The notes under the pieces are model-generated. The model saw only the letters and a list, made by a program, of their open reading frames with translations, was not told where the DNA came from and searched no databases. A stretch of 64,000 nucleotides of DNA, taken from Escherichia coli. Lineage in GTDB: Bacteria > Pseudomonadota > Gammaproteobacteria > Enterobacterales > Enterobacteriaceae. The stretch is from NCBI RefSeq assembly GCF_030384885.1, contig NZ_CP128613.1; one strand, 5' to 3'. Each line of letters starts with the position of its first letter. The stretch's first letter is position 1. Of this stretch, positions 2,158 to 22,694 are shown piece after piece. The translations under genes were made by a program, and so were the position numbers.

Positions 2158-2471
2158 TTGGGGCCATTTTGACTCATAGAGGAAAGCATTACGCACGAAC
2201 TTTCTTAGTTTATTATTTGGATTTATATTCTATTAATACATTATTTTATAGATTTTTATATTGAACGCAGTGGTTTTTGGAGAGATGAATGAGGAAGTTG
2301 CTTCGAGACACAAAAACGTTAGCTTTACCTATAGCGGAGGTTATGTGAAATTAATTTATAAGAGAAACAATTTACATATCAAACAGTTAGTTGCTTTATG
2401 TCGTTTTTTTATATTTTTATGCTTGAGAACAAATACAAAACTTTTTTATGATATGGACAGTTTGGCCCCAA
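2158..2471. promoter_or_regulatory. fimS: fim switch (fimS), 314-bp invertible phase-variation element flanked by 9-bp inverted repeats
   Basis: TTGGGGCCA at 2158-2166 and its reverse complement TGGCCCCAA at 2463-2471, exactly 314 bp end to end, between fimA and fimE. Confidence 0.9.
2423..2452 (+). promoter_or_regulatory. Candidate fimA sigma70 promoter inside the switch, pointing away from fimA as given (phase OFF)
   Basis: TTGAGA (2423-2428), 18-nt spacer, TATGAT (2447-2452) on the + strand; fimA is on the - strand at lower coordinates. Confidence 0.6.
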
Positions 2472-2518
2472 TTGTATTATATTCCTTTATCTTTTTATAT
2501 TATTATCAATAAGTTACA

Positions 2519-3115
2519 TCAGGCATCTTCTCTTTTTAATTTTTCGTTTATGAGATTATTTCTTTCCCATAATCCGGCAAAACGTGCAGCATTACTGGCG
2601 GTATAACGCACAGTATGGCGAATATTTCGATGCCCGAGGTAATCCTGAATTAAACGGGTATCTGCACCACGCTCCGCCAGTTCATAACCGCAAGCATGCC
2701 TTAACATATGAGGATGAGTCTGCGTCACGGTTCCAGCTTCAATACCGGCATCGCGAATAATGCGATAGGCCTGCTGGCGAGAAAGTCGACTCCCGCGGCG
2801 AGAAATAAATATGGCGTCGGTCTGGTCAGCGCCTTTCCAGTTAATACGTTCCTGGGTCCAGCGCTCCACAGCTTCACGCTCATCAAAACGTAACGGGTGA
2901 ACGGTAGAAAATCCGTTCTTCAGTCGGCGAATATTTATTCGACCTTCGTTAAGGTCAAGATCCTGATAATGCAGATCAAGCAGTTCACTAATACGCATCC
3001 CATGCCGATATGCCAACAAAATTAGGCAATAATCTCTGGCTCCCGTTGCCCCGTAACAAACCGCCTGCATCATGTCCTGAACTTCTTTACCGGTAAGATA
3101 ACGACGTTTACTCAC
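2519..3115 (-). CDS. fimE: Fim switch recombinase FimE (tyrosine recombinase, ON-to-OFF)
   Basis: 198 aa, MSKRRYLTGKEV..., tyrosine recombinase motifs (HxxR...Y); GTG start; ends 48 bp from the switch repeat. Confidence 0.95.
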   Translation of the reverse strand: MSKRRYLTGKEVQDMMQAVCYGATGARDYCLILLAYRHGMRISELLDLHYQDLDLNEGRINIRRLKNGFSTVHPLRFDEREAVERWTQERINWKGADQTDAIFISRRGSRLSRQQAYRIIRDAGIEAGTVTQTHPHMLRHACGYELAERGADTRLIQDYLGHRNIRHTVRYTASNAARFAGLWERNNLINEKLKREDA

Positions 3116-3592
3116 AATAGTAGTACTCCTGACTGAGATATATTTGAATGAATACCTATAGGAAACCTCGATCGGTTAAAATTAGCCCAATAGATAAAAA
3201 GATAACCACACAGGAAGTTATGTGGCTATCAGTCAATTACATTAAATATCATACAAAAATAAAATATCACTGATGTGACAACATCTATTTTCATTGATTT
3301 GATTCAATATAACAATAGATTGCAGCGGATTAACTTCCAGTTGCTTAAAAAATAAAGAAAAAAGTGCAGAAACAGGAGAACTTGAGTGATGTGTAAATTT
3401 ATGAATGATTTTGTTTATTTATTTTGAAGAACATAAACCATTGTATTTTGTATGGATATGGTTAACTTAATGTTTATTATGATAATTAAGAATCACACTT
3501 ACAATAACATCAATTAATAAATAGTTAATCATTTTTGATATATCGTAAGAATAATGTATTTTTTAACACCATCCCTGGTATCTCATCTATCT

Positions 3593-7565: not shown

Positions 7566-8546
7566 ATGAACGCAATAATATCGCCCGATTATTACTATGT
7601 TCTTACCGTTGCTGGTCAGTCTAATGCCATGGCGTATGGCGAAGGACTGCCATTACCGGACAGGGAAGATGCGCCTCATCCCAGAATTAAACAATTAGCG
7701 AGATTTGCGCATACGCATCCCGGAGGCCCGTCATGTCACTTTAACGACATTATTCCACTGACTCACTGCCCACACGATGTTCAGGATATGCAGGGTTATC
7801 ACCATCCTCTGGCAACGAATCATCAAACACAGTACGGCACCGTTGGCCAGGCACTGCATATTGCACGGAAATTACTGCCCTTTATTCCTGATAATGCAGG
7901 GGTTCTCATCGTTCCGTGTTGCCGTGGCGGATCGGCTTTTACCGCGGGCAGCGAAGGGACATATTCAGAACGGCACGGAGCCAGCCATGATGCTTGTCGT
8001 TGGGGAACGGATACTCCGCTATACCAGGATTTAGTCAGCAGAACGCGAGCCGCACTGGCAAAAAATCCGCAGAACAAATTCCTCGGCGTATGCTGGATGC
8101 AAGGCGAATTTGACTTAATGACCAGTGACTACGCGTCACACCCTCAACACTTTAATCATATGGTTGAAGCCTTTCGTAGGGATCTAAAACAATACCATTC
8201 TCAGCTTAATAATATTACTGGCGCGCCGTGGTTTTGCGGCGATACCACCTGGTACTGGAAAGAAAGTTTCCCTCATGCGTATGAAGCTATTTATGGCAAT
8301 TATCAAAATAATATTTTAGCCAATATTATTTTCATCGACTTCCAGCAACAAGGTGAAAGAGGGCTGACGAACGCGCCTGATGAAGATCCGGACGATTTAA
8401 GCACGGGATATTTCGGTTCAGCGTACCGGTCACCGGAGAACTGGACGACGGCACTGCGAAGCAGTCATTTCAGCGCGGCAGCCCGTCGGGGGATTATTTC
8501 TGACAGGTTTGTAGAAGCAATTTTGCAGTTTTGGAGCGAAAGGTGA
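7566..8546 (+). CDS. nanS: 9-O-acetyl-N-acetylneuraminate esterase NanS
   Basis: 326 aa, MNAIISPDYYYVLTVAGQSNAMAYGEG... (SGNH-like esterase motif GQSN). Confidence 0.9.
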   Translation: MNAIISPDYYYVLTVAGQSNAMAYGEGLPLPDREDAPHPRIKQLARFAHTHPGGPSCHFNDIIPLTHCPHDVQDMQGYHHPLATNHQTQYGTVGQALHIARKLLPFIPDNAGVLIVPCCRGGSAFTAGSEGTYSERHGASHDACRWGTDTPLYQDLVSRTRAALAKNPQNKFLGVCWMQGEFDLMTSDYASHPQHFNHMVEAFRRDLKQYHSQLNNITGAPWFCGDTTWYWKESFPHAYEAIYGNYQNNILANIIFIDFQQQGERGLTNAPDEDPDDLSTGYFGSAYRSPENWTTALRSSHFSAAARRGIISDRFVEAILQFWSER

Positions 8547-8639
8547 GCGGGGAGTTTATTCATGGGGGATGTCCTTGTCCGTTCCCAAAACAGGCAACAA
8601 AAAACAAATGAGATCAAGGTAATATCTCTTCACTTGCAG

Positions 8640-8900
8640 GCTCGAACAGCAGGCAATTGCCAATATAATAATCTGGCACAAGGGTGAAAAACGCGCACCG
8701 CATAAACCGTTGTTATTGCTTACAGATTAGCCGGATGCCTTAATAGACATCCGCGCCTTTTCGATTATGGCTCGGAAATCTACGAACCTCTGCACAGTTT
8801 ACTGGAACGTTTTGGACCACAGCGTTCACAGTACCGACCTGATATGCCGTTCTGGCGATTATAAGGCGACGGATTCTGGCAAATAGACGATGATAATATG
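8640..8900 (+). pseudogene. Degraded fragment paralogous to the N-terminal domain of the HNH-nuclease gene at 19855-20730
   Basis: Frame-shifted translation gives NIIIWHKGEKRAPHKPLLLL and LFDYGSEIYEPLHSLLERFGPQRSQYRPDMPFWRL, matching NITIWRKGEQRAPHKPLLLL...RLFNYGSEIYEPLLDLLERYGPQRRDQRPDMPFWRL of the 20227-20775 ORF; stops and frameshifts present. Confidence 0.6.
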
Positions 8901-9128
8901 CTTAATGATGTTCAAAGAAATTAGGCCATCATTATATTATTGCTTGCATTTTCTTTCATTCCCAAAAGCACCCGCCATTAATCCCAGGCGCATTATGCAA
9001 AGGAAAATGATTAGGTAAACAATAAGATTTATAATCAGGAAAGGCGACTCGCAATAAAACGCAAAGTCGCCTTAACATTGGTAAAATATGCCCTTTACTA
9101 CTCCTGTATCATGAACGGCTCATCACAT

Positions 9129-12100
9129 TTAAAGCTGACGTTGATCCAGACTGCTATATATTGCCTTTATTTCATTTTTTACGCTTTCGCCACGGTACAC
9201 CAAAGACGTATCGTATCGTTGATACTTATCTTCCCGTGCAGCACTGAACCAGTTAAAAGATCCGACACACAGCAGTTCTTCATCCTCAATTACAATTTTG
9301 CTGTGGACACGATTAACCAATTTCGTAGCGATACCCATCTTATTGAGCTTTTCAACAGCATCATTCAGCAGATGTTTTTTCTCCTGACGCTTATCATCAT
9401 CGACATGCGCTATATTGCAGTTTTTATCCGTCACCACAGTAATATCAATGCCCCGGGAACGGGCCAAAGCCATTGATGCCAGAAATCCCGTTTGCTCCAT
9501 TTTTTGCCAGGATAACCAAGGGGAAATAATCGTTATTTTCTTTTGAGCTCCGGCAAGAGTCTTGTTCAAAAATTCATCATGCGGCTCCACGCCATGCAGC
9601 GTTGAAATTTGTGTATGTGCGGAAATTAAATCCTGTCGTTTATGAAACTCAAATTGCAACGCATTATTATCTGAAGAAAAGAGATATTTTGCCAATAACC
9701 CTCGCGGCGAAAATGCGGGCTGCATCTCGATAAGGTCCATATCGCCAAATACCAGAAAACTATCTTTAGCGCGTGAGACAGCAACATTGAGGATACTGCT
9801 GTTGCTATCAAGAAACCTGCCATCTTCATGTTTTGAGTAGACTGGAGAAAAGAGAACAATCGCCCTTTCCGCCCCCTGCAAGGAGTGCACAGTCCCCACT
9901 GTCAGTGAACCCTCCTCGTCTTTGCCATTAATTTCCAGCTTACGCAATGACGTTTTGATAGCATTAACCTGCGCCGAAAATGGCGTCACAACACCAACAA
10001 CTTTGTACAGTGGTTCCCCGTAATGGCGCTCTATATCATCCTTATGTGCCACCAGCCATGCTGCTATTGTTTCAGCTTCAAGAGGGTTATAACGGCTCCC
10101 CCCATTTGGCTTCATGCCTCTACCATCAATATGTAAATATCCCATTGCGGGGAAAATCGTCCCTTTTTCTATCCCTCTTTTAGGCTGCAACTTACCGTGA
10201 TAGCAAAGTGAGTTACAGTAGCCGATGATGTTATTGAAACAGCGACGATGCTCATACAGATACATTCCGCGCTCGAACTTGGGATCATACTGGTAGTGAG
10301 AGTTAAACTGGGCTACCTGCATTACGCTGCCAGATGCTGCACTTTTTCCAGACCCACACACGTGAGTATATGTATTTATTAACTCTTCCTGAGTGCCACC
10401 AGAAATAATATTCTCCTCAAGCATATTGCCCATATCAGTGACGGGTAGACAATTCCAGATTGGAGCTATTTGCTCCGTATCGCCAATCACCAGCGCTTTC
10501 TTCGCCAATGCAAAGGAAGCTGCAGCAACCTCCGGGAGTACCTGCCCGGCTTCATCGACAATCAGTAAATCAGCAAAGTTATATAAATAATTATTATCCG
10601 ATGTTCTATCGCCACCAAAAGATTTTCTTCTGTTCATATGGTAAGGCAACATGTAGCAGGTCATCACCACACAAGGAGTAAGTTTCATTCTTCTTAGCCA
10701 ACGAGCCTCGGCGATAGTTATCCCGGTAATTCCTTTTTCTTTTTGCAAATTATCTATAGCTGCCATATCAATCAGCCAACGCCCCTCCCAATAATGGGTC
10801 GCTACCAAGAACGCTGGAAAACGAATCTGAGTATCGGCAAGTTCATCCGCTCCTGAAAGATTCAATTCATCGTCACCTCTGTAACCCAAAGCATAAGTCA
10901 ACTCACGCCATTGTTTTGCAGCTTCTATTTCGCGTCGGGCTATATCCTTCGCATAGTTGATGTTCTGTTGGCACTCATCCTGCTCCTTTTGCGTTTTAGC
11001 AATCAAACTATCAATAAATTCATCAATATCTTCGGGATAATTTCCCTGGAACGATGTCATTCTTGTGCCAAACGTAGAGTCCAGGAAGAGGTTAATCTGG
11101 TAATGGCGTTTAGTACGAACAGCAGGAAGCCATGACAAAACCGCATACACTAGCGACTCATCAGCACGGTATTGCTGCCACTGCTTTTTACCTCTGGTTA
11201 AAAGTGAAATTTCATTGCCAATATTGAGAAGACGTGTATTTTCGTCCTGAAGATACTGGTCGAGATTCTCACTGATGGCTCGCTGTTCATGGCGGATATC
11301 ATTAAGCCTGCGCCATGCGGGTTCGATTTGCTGAAGTTGAATAAACTGTGAAGTTAAACGTTCATGCAAAAGCGTCACTACATGCTCTGGTGAATTGCAC
11401 TCTCCAGCTCCAAACGCCACCTCCGCTTTTTCAAGGTAAAATGCCCGGGCTTTTTCCAGATATTCCTGGGATTCAACGTGGTTAAAAAAATCTTCAGTCT
11501 GGTATTTCTTCGCAGCCTCAACCTGACGGCTTTTAGACGGAAAATAAGCGCCATAGCTTATTACCTCCGGCAACCAACGACCAGCCATTACGCCAAAACC
11601 AGTAGAGAAATCTTTTCCAAAGGCTTCAATAATATTGGTGACGGCCTGATTGTTAGTTGATGTGGCAATAATTACAGGAGGTTCAGCTTGATTAAGTGCG
11701 GCTCTAGTCCATTCGGTGGCGATAATAGAAAGCACCAGCGTAGTTTTACCCGTTCCCGGAGGACCGTTAACAGCGAGCATATCCCCCTGCTGTTGAGTCA
11801 GATAATGGCTCAGGGCATCGCGCTGCGCCACTGCCAGCGGAAACTTATCGCCGGAATGCCCCAGACGTTCGCAGAACATAGCATTCTTAGCGAGAAGTGG
11901 CTCTAGTGGAACCATTTCATTTGAGGCAAAACGCGTTAATAGAGGAACCTTAACCTGGCTCATCAGCAGATGGTCATACAAAGGCAGGATATGAACACTG
12001 GCCCCTACATGCTGGCTAGCTTTAACAATATAACCGTATCCAGCCCGTTCGTATGGCTCAGATGTAGCGACCCAATTTCCAGCGACGTTTCTTAAAAGGT

Positions 12101-12644
12101 TATCTGACTGTTGAAGATAATTTTGCCAATGCTGACGATACCTGGCATGGCGTTCCGCTTTCTCTTCGTCAGTTTCTTCGTAATGTTCTGGTTGACCTTC
12201 ATTAATGGTGGCTGTGTTATGCGTAGTTTTGTATTTGTCATATTGCACCAACTCACCAATAGAAAAATGACCGGAAGGGAGAGGTTCAAGCAGATCGCGG
12301 GGAATAGTGGCTGAAGCGGCAGGAAACAAAAAACCTTCCCTATTAAGAAGAGCGGAGGTAACCAGTGGCGTAATAATTGCGGGTGCACCTGCCGTTTGCT
12401 CTTTGCCATGCTTTACAATGCGGTTCCATACCTGGGGCCGTAACACGACTTCAACGTTTTTTACAGACTCCCCTTCACCGTCAAAAAATGCCCGAATAGT
12501 TTCGTCATCCAACTGCCCTGCGCTGATATTTATCCACCGAATGAATGATTCTGTATCTTTACGTGAAAACGTTCCTTTGCCAGATTCGGCGTCAGCTAAG
12601 GAGTTGCGCCAGTATGAAGTGAATCCCAATGTATTGCTGTCCAT
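9129..12644 (-). CDS. Large helicase-nuclease fusion: N-terminal unknown region, SF1 Upf1/DNA2-like helicase, C-terminal PLD (HKD) nuclease; type II Mokosh-like defence candidate
   Basis: 1171-aa ORF, ATG at 12644. Walker [13 protein letters not shown], Walker [10 protein letters not shown], helicase motif [18 protein letters not shown]-terminal HKD motif [19 protein letters not shown]. Confidence 0.85.
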
Positions 12645-12837
12645 TTCTCATTCCGTGACATAATAGAAATCATTGATTTCATTGATGTAAATATTACTTA
12701 TGATTAAACATTGTCCACGATGCGAGCGCGATCGCAATAAATATTGTGCCTGGAGGATGGATTAGATTTTCTGAAAGAGCTAAATCCTTAATAGATAAAC
12801 GCGTACATACTTGGTTCGGTATTCTTAAGGGATTTAA

Positions 12838-12961
12838 TATGGATTGAACCAGGTTGACGTTAGTTGAAAAAAACAGTGGAAAAGATTTGTGTGGCGCGGA
12901 TTTCAGGCATAAAAAAAGACCTCAGTTGAGGTCTATTTACATACTTTTGGTGCGAAGGCCG
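12838..12961. repeat. Direct repeat copy 1 (island-distal att-like site): leuX 3' flank plus 14 nt of tRNA 3' end
   Basis: 12894-12953 is a 60-bp perfect copy of 22361-22420; about 55 bp upstream shows roughly 85 percent similarity; ends in TGGTGCGAAGGCCG, matching the leuX 3' end with a 1-nt deletion. Confidence 0.8.
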
Positions 12962-13077
12962 CACCGCGATTCCAGACTCAACAATATGAAATCAATGGAC
13001 TTTTAAAAATGCGAAGTTACTTTGTATACTCACATGTATACTCAGTACCATTTCTTAAGAAATCAATTCATTCAATA

Positions 13078-13875
13078 CTACTCATCATCGTCTTCCACTG
13101 GTTCCAGCACATCAAGCGCAACTCTCACCATAGCGATAGAACCAATACGAATGAAAGCATCTTCTCCATCTTCGTCGGTTATCATAAAACGAACCGTGGT
13201 TTCAGGCTCGCAATCCAGCGCGTCAAAAAAAGCATTCAACTGGCCGATATCATCCGTCTCTTCGTTTTGCGGCGCATCTGGCTCAACACTCAGTGGAATC
13301 ACTGGTCCGCCGTTTACCAGCGTGATATGGACATTAAAATAATCGTCTTCGTAGGCATCATCCTCTTCGTCAACGATTGGCCGCAGACCATCAGAAAGGA
13401 ACTGATGAAATACCACTTCACGCATATTTAACGCATAACGATACTCGGAAGAATCAAAAACGAAGAAGCGTTCTATGTTTGGAGTGTTTTTTTCCTGAAA
13501 ATAATAATAAAACCTCCGCTTATCCACTGCTGAAATGGGCAACAGCAAATAGTCCCGCTGCCCCTGTAGCCAAAGTTTTACGGTCCAGAGACCGCTATCC
13601 ATTTCAATGCCGCTTGTGGCTATAGCCTCAAGATCTTCATCAGTTTTACGACGCTTTTTGCGGAAGTCATTTATCAACCGATCGCTTTCCGGGAACACTA
13701 CGTTTAGAGGCTTATCCAGAGCATTACATATTGCCTGTGCGAGCCCCAGCTTTGCAGCAACCTTCCCGGTTTCGATACGCTGAATTTGTTGCTGGCTGGT
13801 GCCGACCATAAACGCCAGCTCGCGCTGGGTGATAGATAGCTGGGTACGGAGCTGTTTGATGTTGTTCTGTAACAT
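13078..13875 (-). CDS. XRE-family HTH domain fused to an acidic C-terminal domain of unknown function
   Basis: N-terminal helix-turn-helix LSITQRELAFMVGTSQQQIQRIETGK; about 200-aa C-terminal region ending VEDDDE; preferred start ATG 13875 with GAAGGA RBS (alternative 13884). Confidence 0.7.
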   Translation of the reverse strand: MLQNNIKQLRTQLSITQRELAFMVGTSQQQIQRIETGKVAAKLGLAQAICNALDKPLNVVFPESDRLINDFRKKRRKTDEDLEAIATSGIEMDSGLWTVKLWLQGQRDYLLLPISAVDKRRFYYYFQEKNTPNIERFFVFDSSEYRYALNMREVVFHQFLSDGLRPIVDEEDDAYEDDYFNVHITLVNGGPVIPLSVEPDAPQNEETDDIGQLNAFFDALDCEPETTVRFMITDEDGEDAFIRIGSIAMVRVALDVLEPVEDDDE

Positions 13876-13989
13876 GGCATCCATCCTTCAGAAGGAGTAG
13901 AAAGTGCCATTAAAACACAAAATTGAGTATAAACACATAATCGTGTTTATACTCACTAATCAACACCCTTGAACGAAAAGAAAATCTCT

Positions 13990-14265
13990 TCATCGTTCTT
14001 CTCTAGTATGCCAGAGATCGACTATATAAATGTCATTGTCACGAAGTTCGTAGTGAACCTCATGGTCATCAAATAACACTTTTCGGACTTCCCGAGGTTC
14101 ATACCGAGTCTGCTGTACGCCAATTGCCGGATGTGCTGTAAGACCAGCACAACCAGTAATCAGGCGATCCAAAACGTCATCGGCGTGCTGGCGGCTATAC
14201 TGAAGGGCGAAACGGTAGATACGCTCAAGGTCATCCTGAGCTTTAAGCGTCCAGTAAATTTCCAT
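13990..14265 (-). CDS. ParE/RelE-superfamily toxin
   Basis: 91 aa, C-terminal IYIVDLWHTREER typical of ParE; starts 3 nt after the upstream RHH gene stop. Confidence 0.75.
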   Translation of the reverse strand: MEIYWTLKAQDDLERIYRFALQYSRQHADDVLDRLITGCAGLTAHPAIGVQQTRYEPREVRKVLFDDHEVHYELRDNDIYIVDLWHTREER

Positions 14266-14268
14266 TAA

Positions 14269-14517
14269 TCAGGATTTCTTTAAGCGATTAGCAAAATCCA
14301 CCATGTCCGAGTGGCTCACCACGCGACCGGCATCCACATCCGCAAGACCGGCCTGGATGCTCTGGTGACGCCGTTCTCTTTCGGCCAGCATACTGGTCAA
14401 CGCTTCCTTAATAATCCAGCTCTTAGAACGATCTAACTCAATTGCCAGATTCTCAACAGCAGCGGCCAATTCAATAGGTATCTGTGCGCTGATGGTTTGT
14501 TTAGTAAGCGAACCCAT
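14269..14517 (-). CDS. Ribbon-helix-helix (ParD/CopG-like) antitoxin
   Basis: Small ORF directly upstream of the ParE-like gene; RHH-like N-terminus; start at 14517 (GAGGT RBS) preferred over the ORF-track start 14541. Confidence 0.65.
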   Translation of the reverse strand: MGSLTKQTISAQIPIELAAAVENLAIELDRSKSWIIKEALTSMLAERERRHQSIQAGLADVDAGRVVSHSDMVDFANRLKKS

Positions 14518-14592
14518 AGGGATTACCTCGTTTAATAACATTTAATAACTCCTATTAATATTAGCATAAAGGTGCTTATAAAAACATCAATC

Positions 14593-15426
14593 TCATTTCG
14601 CAGGTAACATCCCCGGAAAGTGCTTCGCCACGATATCATTCATCTTCTCCACCAGATCCAGGCGTTTGAAAGTGATATGCCCACTGCCCTTCTGAAAGTA
14701 GCGAATAGTGAACAACTCATCTTCGAAAATCTGCTGATGCGGATTATCGCGCACAAAATCCATAAACCGGATGGAGACATCATGCCGGTTATCAGGAATG
14801 GTCTTTCCATCCAGCAGGTAGAACATCCGTTCCAGATCGGCAAGCTGATCTCTCCGCCAGCCCCAGTTCAGGCTGTAGCCCCATCTGTCATGCTTCACCA
14901 GATTGTTAACGATAATCTTCTTACCGAAATAACAGGGATTATTGGTTTTGTAATCCCAGCTCAATCCCTTAAATACATTGATAATCCCACGTTCGAAAAC
15001 GTCCTGCTTATTGTGGTGGAGTTGTTCAAAGGTACTCAGGATGTTGGCTTCGCTAATCGCCGGGAGATCGCCCTCCTCCAGGTTCTTTGCCCACTGACTG
15101 CGGGCTTCGGCATCCATCAAGGTCAACATCCCGGACTTCAGCATGAGATCGCGCCAGATGCTGCGATCGATATTGCGGGTGATCACCGGCATGGCTTTAT
15201 CCACCGGCTGCACCAGCCAGCAGTCGAAGGAATGGCCCTGACGCATCGCCCAATGCTCCGCCACATCACCACCGATGCTGGAGGTTAGCCGTGAGATATC
15301 ATCAAGCTTATGGATCAGGATTTCTATCAGACTCAACGCAGCATCACGACCCGTCACGATACGCTCAACACTGGTCGAGCAAATTAGCTCGTTATGATCG
15401 GTTAAGACTTCAGCTTCTGTTTGCAT
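14593..15426 (-). CDS. Conserved hypothetical protein of the type commonly encoded downstream of cbtA-family toxin genes (possibly DUF4942-like)
   Basis: 277 aa from ATG 15426 (ORF-track TTG start at 15450); no motif I can assign; position after CbtA-like toxin. Confidence 0.6.
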   Translation of the reverse strand: MQTEAEVLTDHNELICSTSVERIVTGRDAALSLIEILIHKLDDISRLTSSIGGDVAEHWAMRQGHSFDCWLVQPVDKAMPVITRNIDRSIWRDLMLKSGMLTLMDAEARSQWAKNLEEGDLPAISEANILSTFEQLHHNKQDVFERGIINVFKGLSWDYKTNNPCYFGKKIIVNNLVKHDRWGYSLNWGWRRDQLADLERMFYLLDGKTIPDNRHDVSIRFMDFVRDNPHQQIFEDELFTIRYFQKGSGHITFKRLDLVEKMNDIVAKHFPGMLPAK

Positions 15427-15540
15427 AATCTTTTGTCCGTATAAAAGCAAATGCGCCAGCCATGAACAGCAGGCGCATTATGCAGGGAGTTATGAGGGAA
15501 GTAATTTTGGCGATGTAAATCGGGAAGGAGACTCGCAGAT

Positions 15541-15882
15541 TCACCGTGCCGTGGTGTTATGGCAGCGACGCAGCAGACCTGTAGCCTGCCGCGCCCGCAA
15601 AATATCGACCGCACGAAGATAAGGCGTCTGTTCCCGCCAGCTAAATCCTTTCCTGTCGATACGGATCAATTCGTACTTCTCCACCAGAAAATTGATGGCA
15701 TCAACCAGAGTGATCCCGGCGTCTATGTGTTCCTGAATCACCTTTTCATTGTTGAATGGTGTGTCATTAAGGTTCAGTCCGTAGTGCTGCTCCAGCAGGC
15801 GGGCCAGTAATGTTTGCCAGACCACGACGGGCGACAGATATGACGTCGTCGCCCGCAGCGTCGTTGCAGGAATAATTTTCAT
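15541..15882 (-). CDS. CbtA/YeeV/YkfI-family toxin
   Basis: 113 aa, [60 protein letters not shown] resembles YeeV/YkfI/YpjF. Confidence 0.8.
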
Positions 15883-15912
15883 AACGATGTTCCGTATTAA
15901 GGAGGTTAAAAC

Positions 15913-16248
15913 TCAGCGTTGAGTGGGATAAATAGCGATATAGACGTAACCACAGGAACCCAGCGTATCGGCTTCGCAGGTTAGTCCTTTGGCGTATAGC
16001 GTGACGGTACGTTGTTGGCAGGGGGAGAGTTCACCGTCAGCCAGTTTCAGCTCCAGTTGTTTCATCAACACCGGAAAAGCCTGGTCGATATGCAGCAGAT
16101 CCGGGGAGCTGAATTTCCCGGTAATTGCGGCCCGATCAGCCAGGTAATGCAGGTTATGTCTTTCCTGTACCAGTCGAGCAGTGAAGCGTGGTGTTACGGT
16201 ACAGGGAAGCCCCCATTCTTGTTGCATGACCTTGTCCTTTTGCAGCAT
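15913..16248 (-). CDS. CbeA/YeeU/YafW-family antitoxin
   Basis: 111 aa, WGLPCTVTPRFTARLVQERHNLHYLADRAAI...TVTLYAKGLTCEADTLGSCGYVYIAIYP resembles YeeU/YfjZ; directly upstream of the toxin. Confidence 0.8.
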   Translation of the reverse strand: MLQKDKVMQQEWGLPCTVTPRFTARLVQERHNLHYLADRAAITGKFSSPDLLHIDQAFPVLMKQLELKLADGELSPCQQRTVTLYAKGLTCEADTLGSCGYVYIAIYPTQR

Positions 16249-16360
16249 TACAGCCAGCCCCGTTCGGCAAAAGAGAGGACATCCCCCGCCCCAATAATGA
16301 AATGATCCAGCACCCTCACTTTCACCAAATCCAGTGTCTTAACAATATTCGTTGTAATAA

Positions 16361-16909
16361 GTCTGTCGGCCCGACTGGGTTCCCTATGAGGTTGTCACGC
16401 ACACCACAGAATTCCTGCGCGAAGGCATCAAACGGGAGAAATTAAGCGACGCACAAATCCGCGAACTGGAAGAACAAGGCATAGATCCCAATACGCTGGA
16501 GTTTGATGGTAAGGCGCTGGATGAGGCGATCTACAACAAAGACACCAACCGCTATATCCTGCGTAACCTGATGGAAAATGGCCTGAAAGATCGGGACGGC
16601 CAGTTGCCTGGTAAAACCATCATTTTCGCCCGTAACCACAAACACGCGCTGCTGTTGAATGAATTGTTCGACGATATGTACCCGGAAGGGATTGATGCTG
16701 GCGTTGATTTTAAAGATCGCACGCAGGCGGCGTTTGTTGTACCAAAAGAAGATATTGCTGCGCAGAAATACGACCTCTCTATTAATCGTTATAAAGAAGT
16801 GGTGTATCAGGCTGAGGAGTATGAAGATCCGAAAGTGATACTGAAGCGGTTAAAAGATCTGGAAAATGAGATTCTGGCGGATCTGAATGAGCTGGAGGGA
16901 ATGCTGTGA
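16361..16909 (+). pseudogene. 5'-truncated remnant of the R-M gene that precedes hsdS (hsdM-like C-terminus)
   Basis: In-frame coding sequence from 16361 with no start until ATG 16571; C-terminal KYDLSINRYKE motif; stop overlaps hsdS start (GTGA at 16906-16909). Confidence 0.5.
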
Positions 16910-18090
16910 GTTGGCCGTTAGGAAAAGTTTCCGATATTGCTGCTGTTATATCCGGTTTTGCTTTTAAAAGCGAATGGTTTGGTACAGGAGACGCAAAGGT
17001 TATCCGAATTGGCGATCTTAAGAACGGAAAAATCGATCTTAGTGATGCAATGATCTTTGATCATAAAACTAATAAAGTTCGCGAACAATTTAGAATCAAA
17101 AGCGGCGATATTTTAATGGCTCTTTCTGGCGCAACTGTTGGGAAGATCGCAGTTGCTGATGCTGAAGCTGAAGGTGCATATCTTAATCAACGAGTAGCAG
17201 TGATTCGAGGGCGAAATCATGAAAATGCAGAATATTTAAAATACGTATTTTCAGGACACCCTCTCCAAAAACTACTCCTAAATGCAGGTGGTGCGGCACA
17301 GCCAAATCTTAGCTCTAAAGACTTGGCAGAGATGGAAATACCTATTCCCCCTCTTACCGAACAAAAAAGAATCTCAACCATACTTGATAAAGTAAATGGC
17401 ATACGTCAAAAGCGCGAGCAAGCCATAAAGCTGGCTGATAATTTTTTGCATACCATTTTTCATGAGATGTTTGGCGATCCTGTTAAAAACCCGAAGGGAT
17501 GGGATGTCGCCTCTTTATTAGAATATGGTTCATTCAAAAATGGAATGAATTTTTCAAAAGGTGAATTGGGATCTGCTTTGAAGTGCCTAGGAGTTGGTGA
17601 TTTCAAATCACTGGCAACGATTACCTGTATGGACAATATCGGTGAAATTGAATTAAATACTCTTCCTTCGGATGATTATCTTTTGAAAGATGGTGATATT
17701 GTCTTTGTCCGTTCTAATGGTAATAAAGCCTTGGTCGGAAGATGTCTTACTATTTATCCAAACAAAGAGAAAGTCACATTTAGTGGGTTTTGCATTCGAT
17801 ACAGAATAAAAAATCCTGCAATCACGCCAGAATATCTCAACTTCCTTTTCCGTACACCGTCAATGAAACAGCAAATGTTGAGCGGGGGCCAAGGGGCTAA
17901 TATTCAGAATATTAGCCAAGGTACCTTATCTGCACTCAGGATACCTGTACCTCCATTGGATAAACAACTTGCTTTTGCCAGATTGGTTGATTTCCATGCA
18001 TCTATTGTGAAAAAACAATATGATAAAATGGCTGAATCCGAAAAACTCTTCAATGCCTTGACTGGTGATTTTTTCACATTTAATGAGTGA
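16906..18090 (+). CDS. hsdS: Type I restriction-modification specificity subunit HsdS
   Basis: 394 aa, two target-recognition-like halves with conserved spacer motifs (NQRVAVIRG, LPPLTEQKRI, IPVPPLDKQ); GTG start with RBS GGAGGGA. Confidence 0.85.
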   Translation: MSWPLGKVSDIAAVISGFAFKSEWFGTGDAKVIRIGDLKNGKIDLSDAMIFDHKTNKVREQFRIKSGDILMALSGATVGKIAVADAEAEGAYLNQRVAVIRGRNHENAEYLKYVFSGHPLQKLLLNAGGAAQPNLSSKDLAEMEIPIPPLTEQKRISTILDKVNGIRQKREQAIKLADNFLHTIFHEMFGDPVKNPKGWDVASLLEYGSFKNGMNFSKGELGSALKCLGVGDFKSLATITCMDNIGEIELNTLPSDDYLLKDGDIVFVRSNGNKALVGRCLTIYPNKEKVTFSGFCIRYRIKNPAITPEYLNFLFRTPSMKQQMLSGGQGANIQNISQGTLSALRIPVPPLDKQLAFARLVDFHASIVKKQYDKMAESEKLFNALTGDFFTFNE

Positions 18091-18145
18091 TGGTTTATAG
18101 GATAACTCATTCATTACAAAATTTATTAAATACATAGAGGGGCAA

Positions 18146-18691
18146 ATGGGTACATATATCTCAGATAAAACAGAAACATGTTTTGATGAATATTCTTTAA
18201 TCGAAAAAGTCGGGGATGGCTATAAGATTAGTGTGTACTCATTTAAGCTTCATACAGGAAATCCTTACCAGCCACATATATCAGAAAGTTATAGTGGTGA
18301 TATTTTTATTAGCTATTTGTACTATGGAAATGATTCTTATTACGAGCGCAGACGTCAGGAATACAGAAAATATTTATCATTAAAAGAAATCCACCTTGCT
18401 ATTCTAAAGATGTTTCCAGATGAGCGAAGAATTGCGATAGGTATAAAAAAAGAAAATTACAGTACCGTAAAAATAACTTATGCGGCAGCGGATGAAGTAT
18501 ATCTTCTTGATATTAAAAATAAAGAGACATTATTGTTAGATAATATATTATGTCTATATGATGTTATTTATAAGCATGAAAGCAACATTAATAAATTGGA
18601 AGGCGAGTTAGCAAGTAGTAAAAAAGAACTCCAAAGTATGAAGATAGATATAAAAGAAAAATGTAAATCTATTCTTGATATTGTTGATTAG
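18146..18691 (+). CDS. Hypothetical protein, AT-rich, predicted C-terminal coiled coil
   Basis: 181-aa ORF, ATG 18146 with RBS AGAGGGG; markedly lower GC than neighbours; no recognisable motif. Confidence 0.55.
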   Translation: MGTYISDKTETCFDEYSLIEKVGDGYKISVYSFKLHTGNPYQPHISESYSGDIFISYLYYGNDSYYERRRQEYRKYLSLKEIHLAILKMFPDERRIAIGIKKENYSTVKITYAAADEVYLLDIKNKETLLLDNILCLYDVIYKHESNINKLEGELASSKKELQSMKIDIKEKCKSILDIVD

Positions 18692-18811
18692 TAAAAACAA
18701 CCCCAGTGGCAATAATTCATTGATATGGAACTCTTCTAATGGCTGAAATATTTTCTTTGCGTTATGATGTTTTGTTCTACAGCCTTGAGATTTCACGTCA
18801 GGAAAGTAACC

Positions 18812-19777
18812 ATGCCTTTAGATTTAAGTAATACTTTAGTTATTGGCATTAGCGCAACTGCGCTTTTTGACATGAGCGAATCGGATCGCATGTTTCGGGA
18901 AACCTATGCGACCGATCCGGATAGTGCCATTGAGAAGTATCGTGCTTATATGCTGGAACACGAAAACCAGCCTTTACAGCCCGGAACAGGCTACCCCTTA
19001 GTCAAAGCGTTGCTGGGGCTGAACCGGTACCGCCAGCCGGATGATAAATCGCCGTTGGTTGAGGTTGTTGTGATGTCGCGCAACAGTCCTGATACCGGTA
19101 TCCGCGTTTTGAATACCATTCGCCATGACAAACTCGATATTACACGTTCAGCTTTTACCGCAGGTGAAACCGTTGCCGATTACCTTGATGCCTTTGATGT
19201 GGATCTGTTTTTAACAACCAACGTTGAAGATGCGCAAAAGGTGATTGATTCCCGATTCTGCGCCGCTGCAATCCTGAAAGATCCGCCTTCTGACGCATCT
19301 GATATCCCGGAAGGGCAAGTGCGCATTGCTTTTGACGGCGACGCGGTACTTTTTTCCGATCAAAGCGAACTGGTTTATAAGACCCAAGGAATGGCTGCCT
19401 TTCATGCTCAGGAAGACGCGCAGCAGGATATCCCTATGGAAGAGGGGCCTTATGCCACTTTGCTAAAAAAAATAGCCAAGCTTCAGGAACGATTGCCGAC
19501 CCGCGTTGAGTATTCTCCTGTTCGTATTGCGCTGGTGACAGCCCGAAATAGCCCTTCGGAAATGCGCGTTATTAAAACGCTAAGAAGCTGGGGGGTATAT
19601 GTCGATGAAGCTTTTTTTCTTGGCGGTGTAGAGAAAACAAAAGTTCTGAAGGCGTTTAGGCCACACATTTTCTTTGACGATCAGGATGTGCATTTGATCG
19701 CGGCTGCAAAGGTAGTACCTTCTGGTAAAGTACCTTATGCCAGTAACTCCGAACTGGCAGAACGTGAAGCATCGTAA
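18812..19777 (+). CDS. HAD-superfamily 5'-nucleotidase-like protein
   Basis: 321 aa from MPLDLSNTLVIGISATALFD; HAD-like motifs FDGDAVLF (DxDxV), VTARNSPSE, FFDDQDVH; RBS AGGAAAG. Confidence 0.6.
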   Translation: MPLDLSNTLVIGISATALFDMSESDRMFRETYATDPDSAIEKYRAYMLEHENQPLQPGTGYPLVKALLGLNRYRQPDDKSPLVEVVVMSRNSPDTGIRVLNTIRHDKLDITRSAFTAGETVADYLDAFDVDLFLTTNVEDAQKVIDSRFCAAAILKDPPSDASDIPEGQVRIAFDGDAVLFSDQSELVYKTQGMAAFHAQEDAQQDIPMEEGPYATLLKKIAKLQERLPTRVEYSPVRIALVTARNSPSEMRVIKTLRSWGVYVDEAFFLGGVEKTKVLKAFRPHIFFDDQDVHLIAAAKVVPSGKVPYASNSELAEREAS

Positions 19778-19854
19778 TTATCGCTAACAAACCATTTAGT
19801 CATTAAGGCTGGATGGTTTGTATACCACACGCAAAATAACTGCCCTCCCCCAGA

Positions 19855-20730
19855 TCAATGCTCTCCTCTGAACACCTCTTTTCTGTGCCATTCCACAAAC
19901 CGCTCGCCAGGATAATTTTCTTTAACCGGTGGCAACGCAATCGCCTTTCCTGCAAAATCCCAGAACAGCCGCTGTACCACCCCACCGCCATTTACCGCGC
20001 CGGAAACCACCACACGCATATTTTCATCCAAACCAATCGAACCACGATCAAACGCTTTATGATGGATGGCGCACAATGCCAGGCCATTAGGTACTTCACA
20101 AGGGCCATGGTGCTGCTTCCATCTGATATGAGCGGCTTCCAGAGCAATCGGCGCATTGTCGTGGCGCATGTTAAAGCCGCAGATAGCGCACTGATAATTG
20201 TAAGCACGTAGCACCATCTGACGGAACTACGGATCGCGTTGACGGAGAGAGGTGCGAATATCAAAACCCATCTCGTCAGCTATCTCTTCCTGAATACTGG
20301 CCGGGAAATGCGCCTCCAGGAGCTGCTGCGCCAGCGTATCAATTAACCTGTGATTTTTTGCCACCAAAGCAAAATTATCGGCATCAAATCCACCAGCAAC
20401 ATTATATTCAATGAGTTCACGTCGGGGCGGCTGGCGGCTACCACTGGTTGAGCACAGTTCCGCGTTATGTAGTTCCCAGAAGCCATCGCCCTTCAGACGC
20501 CAGAACGGCATGTCCGGGCGCTGGTCACGGCGCTGCGGTCCATAACGTTCCAGTAGATCCAACAGGGGCTCGTAGATTTCAGAACCATAGTTAAACAGGC
20601 GACCATGACCCTGCCGATAGTGTGAGAGAACGTACAGCAGCAATAATGGCTTATGTGGCGCACGTTGTTCGCCTTTGCGCCAGATGGTGATATTTGATAT
20701 CGCTTGTTTTAGGGTTTTGTCAGAGGTCAT
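19855..20730 (-). pseudogene. HNH endonuclease-family gene with unknown N-terminal domain, interrupted by one in-frame amber (TAG) codon
   Basis: ORFs 20227-20775 and 19855-20217 are in the same frame, separated only by TAG at 20229-20227 plus 3 sense codons; C-terminal part has HNH motifs CAICGF...EAAHIRWKQHHGP...NGLALCAIHHKAFD. Confidence 0.7.
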
Positions 20731-20861
20731 TGCGTTGGAGAATCCATGAGCACATATTTGCGATGATGCTCGCAACTATATGTACATTCAAGGCATTATT
20801 GCAGACATCCTTTTTCTCTGGCGGTTCTGTACCTGGCAGATAGAATTCTGATAACAACGGT

Positions 20862-20908
20862 AAAAAATACAGCGACCAACCAGTCCTAAGCGGGCTGGTT
20901 GGTCTTTT
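20862..20908. terminator. Hairpin terminator downstream of intB (bidirectional appearance)
   Basis: Stem GACCAACCAG / CTGGTTGGTC with T-run on + (TTTT 20905-20908) and A-run upstream (T-run on minus). Confidence 0.5.
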
Positions 20909-20945
20909 AAATTTAAACATCAGCCGAGGAATAACGGCATTCAAC

Positions 20946-22214
20946 TCACTCGCCATTCCCCCGGTTGATCTTCGCATAGTCAAACGGCGTAATCGCTCTT
21001 TCCCGATTGGCATCCAGAAAATCAGCCCACCACTGTAACATCAGCTTGCGCTCATCCAGATGTTCCGCTTTATGGATATACGCCGCCCTCACCGAATTGC
21101 GTTCCATATGGCTCATCTGGCGCTCCACCGCATCCTTCGACCATAGCCCTGACTCAATTAACGAACTACAGGCCATTGTACGGAAGCCGTGGCCGCAAAC
21201 TTCAACCTTAGTGTCATAACCCATCACCCGTAGCGCACTGTTTACCGTGTTCTCGCTCATGGGCTTACGCGGATCGTGATCGCCAATAAAAATCAGCTCA
21301 TGTTCGCCACAGAACTGTTTTATCTGCTTCAGGATCGCCAGCGCCTGCTTTGAAAGCGGCACCAGATGAGGTGTGCGCATCTTTGAACCTCGCTGAGAAT
21401 GTTTCACGCCGGGAATCGGTTCTCGCTCAGGCGGGATGGTCCACATTGATGTTTCAAAATCGATCTCTGACCAGCGAGCAAAACGCAGCTCACTGGATCG
21501 AATAAAAATAAGCAGAGTAAGTTCGGTTGCCCAGCGGGTTAGCGGCCTGCCGGTATAGCCGTCTATTTTCTCAAGCAACTCAGGGATGCGCTTTAACTCC
21601 AGCGCCGGACGATGCTGTCGATTACTGGAAGCAACCGCCCCTGCCATCTCTTGCGCCGGATTGTAATCAATTAACCCGCTTTGCACTGCATAACGCATGA
21701 TGGCCGTGGTGCGCTGTTGAAGGCGGGAAGCCACCTCAAGACGTCCGGATTTCTCCACGGCTTTAATAGGAATTAACAGATCGCGGGTGCCCAGTTCAGC
21801 AATATTGTGGGAACCAATTGCCGGGAAGATATTGTCCTCCAGGCTCTTTTTTACACGATTAGCATGATCTTCCGACCATTTTTGGTTGGTTACGAGCCAC
21901 TCTTTGGCAACCTTCTCGAAAGTAATAATCTCTTTCGCCTGCTCTTCTTTCACAGCACGCTTATGCTCACGAGGATCGATACCAGCAGCTACCAGCTTTC
22001 TGGCCTCTTCCCTTTTCTTCCTGGCATCCGCCAGCGAAACATCCGGGTAAACGCCGAACGCCATCAAATGTTGTTTACCACCAAAACGGAAACGAAATCG
22101 CCAATACTTTGAACCGCCAGGTTTTACAAGTAAGGACATGCCGTCGCCGTCAACAAGTGAATACTCTTTCTCCTCAGGTTTCGCAGAGCGAACTTTAGTA
22201 TCCGTTAGGGCCAT
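20946..22214 (-). CDS. intB: P4-type tyrosine integrase (IntB-like)
   Basis: 422 aa from MALTDTKVRSAKPEEKEY with RBS GGAAGGAAG; C-terminal tyrosine-recombinase catalytic region; adjacent to tRNA-Leu. Confidence 0.9.
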   Translation of the reverse strand: MALTDTKVRSAKPEEKEYSLVDGDGMSLLVKPGGSKYWRFRFRFGGKQHLMAFGVYPDVSLADARKKREEARKLVAAGIDPREHKRAVKEEQAKEIITFEKVAKEWLVTNQKWSEDHANRVKKSLEDNIFPAIGSHNIAELGTRDLLIPIKAVEKSGRLEVASRLQQRTTAIMRYAVQSGLIDYNPAQEMAGAVASSNRQHRPALELKRIPELLEKIDGYTGRPLTRWATELTLLIFIRSSELRFARWSEIDFETSMWTIPPEREPIPGVKHSQRGSKMRTPHLVPLSKQALAILKQIKQFCGEHELIFIGDHDPRKPMSENTVNSALRVMGYDTKVEVCGHGFRTMACSSLIESGLWSKDAVERQMSHMERNSVRAAYIHKAEHLDERKLMLQWWADFLDANRERAITPFDYAKINRGNGE

Positions 22215-22304
22215 AATGGTCTTCCTTCCATTGGTATCTCGTGAGTATACAAGCAATATCGAATCGGCAAATATACTCATTAGTATACTCACAAGCCTGT
22301 TGAT

Positions 22305-22420
22305 GTGGGTTGAGTCAGGTTGACTTCAGTTGAGGGGAAAAGCTGGAAAAGCCTTGTGTAGCGCGGATTTCAGGCATAAAAAAAGACCTCAGTTGAGGTC
22401 TATTTACATACTTTTGGTGC
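22305..22420. repeat. Direct repeat copy 2 (integrase-proximal), covering the leuX terminator hairpin and tRNA 3' end
   Basis: 22361-22420 identical to 12894-12953; contains GACCTCAGTTGAGGTC hairpin plus T-run on the minus strand (leuX terminator). Confidence 0.8.
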
Positions 22421-22499
22421 CGAAGGCCGGACTCGAACCGGCACGTATTTCTACGGTTGATTTTGAATCAACTGCGTCTACCGATTTCGCCACTTCGGC
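22415..22499 (-). tRNA. leuX: tRNA-Leu (CAA anticodon), leuX
   Basis: Reverse complement reads GCCGAAGTGGCGAAATCGGTAGACGCAGTTGATTCAAAATCAACCGTAGAAATACGTGCCGGTTCGAGTCCGGCCTTCGGCACCA, 85 nt with encoded CCA. Confidence 0.95.
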
Positions 22500-22694
22500 A
22501 CTGAAGAGGTATGCGGAAAACGTTGTGGATTATACCTGTCACGCGCCACCATGCAAGCGCCAGCTTGCTCCCACCTCGCTAAGTGCTGAAATTTTCAGCA
22601 TTACATACAGCGATGTGCAACCTTTGTCACACTCCAGGCACCACGCCCTACCATGCTCTACACTTCCCAGACAACACCAGAGAAGGACAAAAAT

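Follow-up and report, generated by a model that had tools for sequence, protein, structure and literature searches.

In Escherichia coli K-12, the gene yjhR is annotated as 'frameshifted; incomplete; missing N-terminus', whereas the E. coli DNA analyzed here, a stretch of 64,000 nucleotides (the window), carries a long unbroken open reading frame (ORF) at the same locus. The locus raises the question of what the intact ORF encodes and whether it is still a working gene. A preliminary description of the window had read it as a type II Mokosh-like fusion of helicase and nuclease. The reading preferred here, with a probability of about 85%, is an intact, selectively maintained one-protein anti-phage system composed of a MkoC-specific N-terminal domain (N-domain), an Upf1-like SF1B helicase, and a PLD nuclease. 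The Mokosh family, its role in defence, and the assignment of yjhR to it have all been published, and in a 2022 preprint (Cury et al.) E. coli YjhR is described as a fused Mokosh. The finding is correct but ordinary, i.e., an intact copy of a gene of which K-12 and numerous other E. coli strains have only a broken remnant. RefSeq already names the ORF, and standard defence finders would call yjhR.

Gene, domains, and family of YjhR

The ORF runs uninterrupted from its ATG start on the minus strand (Table 1), and its 132.3 kDa product is 100% identical to RefSeq WP_106907644.1, 'helicase YjhR'. A length of 1171 codons excludes a chance ORF by far. The single ORF and all motifs quoted in the preliminary description, which gave no strand, were present in the translation. 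The gene showed 45.1% GC (GC3 42.2%), against 48.4% for the window and 49-55% for core genes beyond leuX, in agreement with the lower-than-core GC described earlier.

Table 1. Features at and around yjhR, in window coordinates
Feature	Position	Strand	Description and basis
mkoC/yjhR CDS	9129..12644	-	1171 aa plus stop; ORF list, translation, PADLOC MkoC
N-terminal domain	11841..12644	-	residues 1-268; mixed alpha/beta; MkoC-type proteins only
SF1B Upf1-like helicase core	9675..11837	-	residues about 270-990; Pfam, conserved columns, PDB sequence and fold matches
All-helical insertion in first RecA-like domain	10686..11468	-	residues about 393-653; AF2 secondary structure
C-terminal PLD-family nuclease domain	9132..9617	-	residues about 1010-1171; Pfam PLDc_2/PLDc, MkoB partial match, PDB matches
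Walker A, GPPGTGKTT	11739-11765		residues 294-302
Motif Ia, STNNQAVTN	11634-11660		
Walker B, LLIVDEAGQ	10542-10568		residues 693-701
Motif III, GDTEQ	10458-10490		
Motif V	9849-9899		residues 916-932
Motif VI	9765-9785		
HxK(x4)D...GSxN motif	9249-9305		residues 1114-1132; HSKIVIED (1114-1121), then GSFN
Part retained as K-12 yjhR pseudogene	9129..10356	-	residues about 764-1171; without Walker A, Walker B, and motif III
Native yjhR upstream spacer	12645..12953	-	same sequence as the yjhR-leuX spacer in an island-free strain (alignment)
Putative sigma-70-like site	12690-12717		in the spacer; weak consensus match (9 of 12), no proof of function
leuX terminator hairpin	12917-12934		in the spacer; consensus scan
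Distal copy of 77-nt direct repeat	12877..12953	.	repeat search; partner at 22344-22420, 96% identity
Island integrase ORF	20946-22292		
leuX, tRNA-Leu CAA	22415-22499		only Rfam feature in scan of 8000-23000
Frameshifted phosphorothioated-DNA-binding (type IV) restriction endonuclease remnant	8656..8861	+	RefSeq annotation of identical sequence

The PADLOC MkoC model (PDLC03924) matched the protein end to end (E = 0, 1464.2 bits), with residues 1-1169 aligned to model positions 1-1135 of 1136. In Pfam search, AAA_11 (273-458), AAA_12 (795-969), PLDc_2 (1028-1153), and also PLDc were found, i.e., the helicase lies N-terminal to the PLD domain in one chain, as type II Mokosh requires. The Pfam and PADLOC Mokosh searches suggested with the preliminary description were thus all positive. 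Partial PADLOC matches were seen for MkoA models at 692-993 (113 and 90 bits) and for the MkoB model at 1011-1139. No serine/threonine kinase domain was recognized among the Pfam matches, and no separate MkoB gene among the neighbouring ORFs. These neighbours comprise the remnant of a restriction enzyme and the genes of the island. Judged by its sequence, the ORF encodes a type II Mokosh protein in intact form (MkoC, which in E. coli bears the name YjhR), and the fusion proposed earlier holds.

The catalytic residues were conserved. In the alignment of 51 homologues, K300, D697/E698, Q725, R958, H1114, K1116, and D1121 occupied columns that were invariant or at least 90% conserved, and G1128, S1129, and N1131 were also at least 90% conserved. 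HxK(x4)D occurs exactly once in the protein. The COG1112-type helicase core had been described as SF1 Upf1/DNA2-like, which was confirmed by AAA_11 and AAA_12 and by similarity to Upf1, DNA2, Sen1, and IGHMBP2 in sequence and fold. The top Foldseek matches were senataxin, Upf1, Aquarius, IGHMBP2, and DNA2 (E 1e-17 to 1e-12). PDB sequence matches were Upf1-like helicases and, for the PLD domain, Nuc (1byr) and NucT (6ehi) at E 1e-4; this resemblance, together with the Pfam matches, supports the HKD nuclease claimed before. The full-length AF2 model had a pLDDT of 88.8, and in it the long helical insertion appears to lie where Upf1 has its 1B/1C accessory domains.

Among solved structures, eukaryotic Upf1, senataxin, and DNA2 come closest, and the RefSeq name is simply 'helicase YjhR', so that a housekeeping DNA/RNA helicase-nuclease for repair or RNA decay, DNA2/Upf1-like and not for defence, could be considered. 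However, the 5' half of the gene is present in 12 of 5,426 complete E. coli genomes and roughly 1,700 genomes hold a truncated gene, a distribution incompatible with a core function. The low GC, the defence-gene neighbours, and the full-length match to a defence model also speak against it, and the best NCBIfam matches were anti-phage helicases, although all far under the curated cut-offs. Such a role is hardly credible.

Genomic history of the locus

The gene is found downstream of an ORF of 326 aa, which agrees with the annotated nanS in position and length. The 77-nt repeats mark a 9.4-kb island inserted into leuX at its 3' end, and the distal copy is the far end of this island. The location between nanS and the leuX island, as described before, is therefore correct. 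yjhR starts 233 nt outside the distal repeat, and in an island-free strain the yjhR flank directly abuts leuX. The gene was rejected as cargo of the leuX island, since it lies outside the repeats and its spacer is the yjhR-leuX spacer of the island-free strain. The Rfam scan of 8000-23000 gave no non-coding feature besides leuX, and the promoter and terminator scan gave weak consensus matches only.

The truncated K-12 yjhR pseudogene named in the preliminary description is real. In blastn, K-12 yjhR aligned to nt 2289-3516 of the window gene only, with 98.05% identity and 1 indel. It is the same gene at the same locus, with 98% nucleotide identity over the common part, but it carries a frameshift and has lost the N-domain, Walker A and B, and the native upstream region, keeping motifs V and VI and the PLD domain. 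The window holds the K-12 pseudogene at full length and in apparently functional form, with the native promoter region, and yjhR could be restored in K-12 from it.

Against the 12 genomes with the 5' half of the window allele, the 3' remnant was counted in 1,729 genomes, so at species level the selection to keep yjhR is weak or episodic. The coverage classes end at window position 10356, at about 10230, and at others, which suggests several independent deletions. Between the window allele and the intact allele of strain N1420 (94% identical), dN/dS was 0.13 over about 210 substitutions, i.e., 0.165 for the N-domain, 0.141 for the helicase, and 0.089 for the PLD domain. This value between two intact alleles indicates purifying selection on yjhR. 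The exact protein was found on 57 contigs, and its 90%-identity cluster has 471 members, including E. marmotae.

The species-wide pattern is overwhelmingly one of loss, and the adjacent defence gene is already degraded. It might be argued from this that yjhR is intact only through recent gain or retention, and is already non-functional and on its way to a K-12-like pseudogene. However, dN/dS is low in all three domains, every catalytic residue is kept, a second strain with an intact gene has an identical upstream region, and the exact protein recurs on the 57 contigs within its cluster of 471 members. Such decay is very unlikely. The family membership, the intact catalytic residues, the purifying selection, the native promoter region, and the genomic history are all directly supported by these data.

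Mechanism and the N-terminal domain

The type II Mokosh verified by Millman et al. (2022) is MkoC of E. coli 5-366-08_S1_C1, a single gene (construct SG150, 3,903-nt entry), in which mutation of Walker A or of the PLD site abolishes defence (10.1101/2022.05.11.491447). This MkoC and the window protein are both 1171 aa long and align colinearly, with 66% identity over the first 398 residues, the ones printed by Millman et al. UTI89 WP_000344108.1 is 96% identical to the verified MkoC. To this protein the window protein showed 62% aa identity over the full length with 2 gaps, and the genes showed 66-68% nucleotide identity. 'EcMokosh II' of a 2025 preprint on nuclease-NTPase systems (10.1101/2025.07.10.664194) is presumably of the same lineage as the UTI89 protein. 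It is reported to be a monomer of about 138 kDa in mass photometry, which in vitro cleaves only ssDNA and nicks plasmid, RNA being outside the substrate panel, and which in a panel of 11 phages protected only against the ssDNA phage. RNA or RNA/DNA hybrids were proposed as the Mokosh target in the earlier study (10.1101/2022.05.11.491447).

Beside yjhR, the window keeps only a frameshifted remnant of about 206 nt of a restriction gene, the coordinates of which were transferred from an identical RefSeq-annotated locus (offset 3401). In strain N1420 the block of HNH endonuclease, 290-aa PT-DNA restriction enzyme (WP_024009496.1), and yjhR is intact. In 882 of 975 E. coli instances, Mokosh II and RM IV are found together, and their co-localization is non-random (10.1101/2022.08.21.504612). 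If yjhR worked only with the adjacent type IV SBD-HNH (phosphorothioate-sensing) enzyme, the decay of this partner would leave a lone MkoC inert or altered. This dependence is unlikely, as the verified system is a single gene and purified EcMokosh II on its own cleaves ssDNA. In addition, the neighbours of UTI89 mkoC are an integrase and a phosphoethanolamine transferase, with no type IV restriction gene, the island-free strain R32_14_1F carries yjhR intact next to the remnant that is also seen in the window, and dN/dS between intact alleles is low.

A role as gatekeeper at the leuX hotspot, with the incoming ssDNA of conjugative and integrative elements as main target instead of phage, would fit the ssDNA cleavage and plasmid nicking reported for EcMokosh II. 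It would also fit the position of both MkoC lineages next to the leuX site, one on the flank and the other as island cargo, first in line behind the integrase. However, the phenotype demonstrated (10.1101/2022.05.11.491447, 10.1101/2025.07.10.664194) is anti-phage. The window strain also holds the leuX island despite its intact yjhR. Defence genes in general are commonly placed beside tRNA integration sites. The gatekeeper role is therefore considered unlikely, and an anti-phage system is the reading followed here.

The likely mechanism is borrowed by analogy from what experiments showed for the E. coli lineage of 62% identity. For YjhR we infer its target, the way it is activated, the function of the N-domain, and that its lineage is active. 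Sharing only 62% identity with the tested protein, YjhR could differ from it in specificity or even in activity. In the literature searched, subscription journals excepted, no experiments on the YjhR lineage came up, nor any paper devoted to the mechanism or structure of Mokosh, and no solved type II Mokosh structure was found by sequence or fold search. At rest, YjhR would be monomeric. On infection, the helicase would load on single-stranded nucleic acid derived from it, i.e., ssDNA genomes, replication intermediates, or possibly RNA, and the PLD domain would cut the loaded strand via a phosphohistidine intermediate. Defence would need both the ATPase and the HKD site.

Nuc and NucT are about 155 aa, and the single-HKD nucleases characterized, Nuc among them, work as homodimers. 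Since YjhR has one HKD motif per chain, two molecules would probably have to come together on the substrate before the nuclease is active, and this need would hold it off in uninfected cells. Dimerization on the substrate is our own proposal, and the published mass photometry of EcMokosh II shows a monomer only. The N-domain would most likely regulate this assembly or recognize the substrate.

Motifs conserved in the N-domain are YWRNSLAD (11-18), IPRDLLEPL (114-122), and RLGHS (260-264). The domain structure was confidently predicted. No relative of this domain of about 270 aa was found among solved structures. In phmmer search of residues 1-274 against 1.84 billion representatives, 237 matches were obtained, and the long matches listed (about 960-1,280 aa) all bear the domain at or near the N-terminus. 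With the N-domain as query, the best 50 Foldseek matches in AFDB50 were all helicase-PLD proteins or fragments. The N-domain as a module of other protein architectures was rejected at the phmmer and Foldseek sensitivity used. The sensor module suggested in the preliminary description would not be a free-standing one common to other systems, as the region is confined to MkoC-type proteins. Paenibacillus MkoC-type proteins matched the N-domain by fold. With the Bacillus megaterium MkoC N-terminus, hhalign gave a probability of 0.3% in one single-sequence comparison, so the N-domain is not universal in type II Mokosh. As a tentative suggestion, which we hold at well below even odds, the N-domain could be an infection sensor or autoinhibitory gate that governs the assembly of two single-HKD domains on phage single-stranded nucleic acid, and the YjhR lineage could recognize other phages or mobile elements. 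The family-specific N-domain and the single-HKD puzzle give concrete handles on the mechanism of type II Mokosh.

Comparison with known systems

Type I Mokosh has helicase and PLD families that are the same as in YjhR. However, it consists of two genes, i.e., MkoA, a helicase with serine/threonine kinase, and MkoB, the PLD nuclease (10.1101/2022.05.11.491447), whereas YjhR is one chain with no kinase. Upf1, senataxin/Sen1, IGHMBP2, DNA2, and MOV10L1 share the helicase fold and motifs at 11-18% identity. The pairing of helicase and PLD nuclease, as with PLD6/Zucchini in the piRNA pathway, was discussed with YjhR as the example by Cury et al. The eukaryotic Upf1-like helicases and PLD6/Zucchini are separate polypeptides with other accessory domains, and no MkoC-type N-domain was found among solved structures. 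Nuc (pKM101) and NucT resemble YjhR in having a single HKD motif within a domain of about 160 aa. They stand alone, whereas the PLD domain of YjhR is tethered to a helicase, and EcMokosh II is monomeric in solution.

The verified MkoC lineage is alike in the three-domain layout and in the motifs of Walker A, Walker B, and HKD. YjhR also has the A995/L996 domain boundary at which EcMokosh II was divided for the split constructs. YjhR represents a second E. coli Mokosh II lineage beside the verified one. Its enterobacterial homologues in Serratia, Dickeya, and Xenorhabdus were 73-74% identical to the window protein, closer than the other E. coli lineage. Both E. coli lineages adjoin the leuX attachment site. 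The UTI89 lineage is leuX-island cargo directly after the integrase, in about 900 of 5,426 genomes, whereas the window lineage lies in the chromosomal flank outside the att site and is intact in 12 genomes. The leuX hotspot shows turnover of defence genes, with one MkoC lineage decaying in the flank and a second coming in as cargo of the island.

Identity and family of YjhR

The yjhR (mkoC) gene was found in the window ORF list as one uninterrupted frame with an ATG start, encoding a protein of 1171 aa with a computed mass of 132.3 kDa. The preliminary description had reported an intact ORF of this length with helicase and nuclease motifs and a GC content lower than that of the core. Every motif it quoted was seen in the translation, and HxK(x4)D occurred only once in the whole protein. 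The GC content was 45.1% (GC3 42.2%) against 48.4% in the window and 49-55% in the core genes beyond leuX.

Features of the yjhR region and the leuX island (window positions, or YjhR residues where stated)
Feature	Position	Strand	Remarks
Type IV (phosphorothioated-DNA-binding) restriction endonuclease remnant	8656-8861	+	~206 nt, frameshifted, beside mkoC; RefSeq annotation
yjhR (mkoC)	9129-12644	-	
Walker A	residues 294-302		computed from translation
Walker B	residues 693-701		computed from translation
Helicase motif V	residues 916-932		computed from translation
HKD motif	residues 1114-1132		computed from translation
Direct repeat, first copy	12877-12953		77 nt
HTH regulator and toxin-antitoxin segment	13078-16248	-	distal island end; names from RefSeq annotation of identical sequence
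Type I restriction-modification S subunit	16906-18090	+	full length; PADLOC Specificity_I, 544 bits, 1-394 of 393
181-aa ORF	18146-18691	+	just upstream of the 337-aa ORF
337-aa ORF	18764-19777	+	PADLOC candidate defence family PDC-S08, full length, 448 bits; Pfam 5'-nucleotidase PF06189, E 6e-119
Phosphorothioated-DNA-binding restriction endonuclease fragment	20230-20775	-	N-terminal 163/284 model positions, 223 bits
Integrase gene	20946-22292		
Direct repeat, second copy	22344-22420		77 nt

Window positions 8600-13000 were 100% identical to strain 2013C-4282, in which RefSeq names the ORF 'helicase YjhR' (WP_106907644.1). The identical protein was present on 57 contigs, and its 90%-identity cluster has 471 members, Escherichia marmotae included.

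The PADLOC MkoC model covered the protein from one end to the other (E = 0, 1464 bits; residues 1-1169 vs. model 1-1135/1136); MkoA and MkoB, the models for type I, matched only the corresponding sub-regions. In Pfam, AAA_11 (273-458), AAA_12 (795-969), PLDc_2 (1028-1153) and PLDc were detected. No NCBIfam model matched at its cut-off, and the top partial matches were other anti-phage helicases. Against PDB sequences, a 51-homologue profile matched senataxin-like, DNA2, Upf1, Nam7, Sen1, ZNFX1 and IGHMBP2 proteins via the second RecA domain, and Nuc and NucT via the PLD domain. The same Upf1-like helicases were retrieved by Foldseek (E 1e-17 to 1e-12) with the full-length AlphaFold2 model (pLDDT 88.8, pTM 0.81), in which the first RecA domain carries a long helical insertion (~393-653). 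Each catalytic and helicase-motif residue was either invariant among the 51 aligned sequences or conserved in at least 90% of them.

These family tests are mutually consistent. The proposed type II Mokosh-like helicase-PLD fusion was borne out by the full-length MkoC match, the Pfam domains and the Upf1-like fold, and every profile search suggested for it was positive (Pfam AAA_11/AAA_12 and PLDc; PADLOC Mokosh). It is extremely improbable that YjhR is a housekeeping helicase. The earlier observation and interpretation were accurate, yet they rediscovered a named and published defence gene; a 2022 preprint already ties E. coli YjhR to fused Mokosh.

The N-terminal domain

By phmmer, residues 1-274 had 237 matches among 1.84 billion representatives. 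In the long matches among those listed (~960-1,280 aa), the region lay at or near the N-terminus; the short ones resembled fragments. From a 45-sequence alignment of 30% mean column identity, AlphaFold2 gave a confident model of the domain (pLDDT 89.7, pTM 0.80); the predicted fold combines alpha and beta elements, and residues 159-191 form a long central helix. All of the best 50 Foldseek hits in AFDB50 were helicase-PLD proteins or their fragments, from Proteobacteria and Paenibacillus. The invariant positions were G104, R116, P121, W173 and Y223, and the conserved motifs included RLGHS. The one type II Mokosh N-terminus from Bacillus megaterium that was compared did not match the domain profile (probability 0.3%). 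The domain is real, conserved and, in these searches, limited to MkoC-type proteins; its fold had no counterpart among solved structures, and it is plausible as a putative sensor or regulator.

The leuX locus and loss of yjhR

In the window, yjhR and leuX are parted by a 9.4-kb island (12953-22344), which is bounded by direct repeats with 96% identity and has a P4-type integrase adjoining leuX. In the island-free strain R32_14_1F, an intact yjhR was placed 304 nt from leuX. The 309-nt upstream spacer of the window gene is identical to that of R32_14_1F up to the TGGTGC which opens the leuX 3' end. Given this spacer identity and the repeat bounds, yjhR belongs to the flank, and its being island cargo was ruled out.

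Each repeat is made up of the sequence flanking leuX downstream, its terminator hairpin included, and 6 nt from the start of the tRNA 3' end, and the island-side copy runs on to about 120 nt at weaker similarity. The window aligned with 2013C-4282 at 99.9% in four pieces, and approximately 11.8 kb of the larger island of that strain was absent. This absent DNA apparently includes the genes of that strain for a type I M subunit and a DEAD/DEAH helicase, which makes the S gene of the window a possible orphan. The two ORFs at 18146-19777 (+) lie in a segment of 33-35% GC, and the 181-aa ORF had no Pfam, NCBIfam or PADLOC match. At the distal end of the island lie the genes for an HTH regulator (268 aa, HipB/MqsA-like N-terminus), two toxin-antitoxin pairs (RelE/ParE-CopG and CbtA-YeeU) and a DUF4942 protein. 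A second phosphorothioated-DNA-binding restriction endonuclease fragment was found near the integrase gene.

On the flank of strain N1420, the genes for an HNH endonuclease and a phosphorothioated-DNA-binding restriction enzyme (locus L003, 3260-4919) form an intact block with yjhR. Compared with the window remnant, this block indicates that the leuX flank was formerly a three-gene defence block. Both agree with the published association of E. coli Mokosh II with type IV restriction, i.e., co-localisation and co-occurrence in 882 of 975 instances (10.1101/2022.08.21.504612). That YjhR depends on this decayed neighbour is quite unlikely.

The truncated yjhR pseudogene that the preliminary description gave for K-12 was confirmed; it aligned to gene nt 2289-3516 only (98.05% identity, one indel) and is annotated as frameshifted with its N-terminus missing. 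Among 5,426 complete E. coli genomes, a near-identity search with the 5' half of the window allele (10900-12644) hit 12, i.e., six at 99% or more and six at about 95%. The 3' part (9129-10356) was found in 1,729 genomes, nearly complete in 1,568. Sensitive blastn with the 5' half added about 900 genomes, which carry the other MkoC lineage (66-68% identical).

Remnants in E. coli genome matches H2, H11-H13 and H60-H66 end variously, at window 10356, ~10230 and ~10260, and IS66-family elements disrupt some of the copies. These differences suggest several independent inactivations, not one ancestral deletion. The window allele differs from its N1420 counterpart (~95% identity) by about 138 synonymous and 72 non-synonymous substitutions. 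The dN/dS was 0.13 overall (N-domain 0.165, helicase 0.141, PLD 0.089), and intact yjhR is under purifying selection. It is very improbable that the window gene is non-functional and, like the remnants, heading to decay.

Mechanism and comparison with tested Mokosh proteins

YjhR is an MkoC of full length whose ATPase and HKD sites are both intact; its gene is under purifying selection and retains the native upstream region. Mokosh was defined by Millman et al., with type II as one gene whose product carries a helicase N-terminal to a PLD nuclease; ATPase and PLD activities are both required for defence, and mutations of the ATP-binding and PLD sites abolished defence (10.1101/2022.05.11.491447). 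In a 2025 preprint on nuclease-NTPase systems, EcMokosh II is reported as a monomer (~138 kDa measured, 132 kDa expected) whose nuclease is ssDNA-specific, ssDNA being the sole substrate cleaved in vitro and plasmid being nicked; among 11 phages it protected against the ssDNA phage only (10.1101/2025.07.10.664194). A mainly anti-mobile-element role of YjhR is unlikely.

On the example of Nuc, a single-HKD chain alone would be insufficient for a complete PLD active site, and with one HKD per chain, cleavage should require two molecules. We infer that the translocating helicase might gather two molecules on the single-stranded substrate, leading to cleavage, and the N-domain might gate this step.

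The verified type II construct, SG150 from E. coli 5-366-08_S1_C1, encodes an MkoC of 1171 aa (10.1101/2022.05.11.491447). YjhR was colinear with it from residue 1, with 66% identity across the portion given in the supplement (398 residues). UTI89 WP_000344108.1 showed 96% identity to the verified protein; to YjhR it was 62% identical and 77% similar, with 2 gaps over all 1171 residues. Therefore, two MkoC lineages exist in E. coli, and the experimentally tested lineage is not that of YjhR. The split constructs of EcMokosh II, cut at A995/L996 (10.1101/2025.07.10.664194), cannot discriminate them, since both lineages have these residues. In UTI89 (locus L005, 6721-12221), the cargo of the leuX island begins, after the integrase, with the gene for the 1171-aa MkoC. 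With YjhR on the flank, both lineages therefore occupy one hotspot, on opposite att sides.
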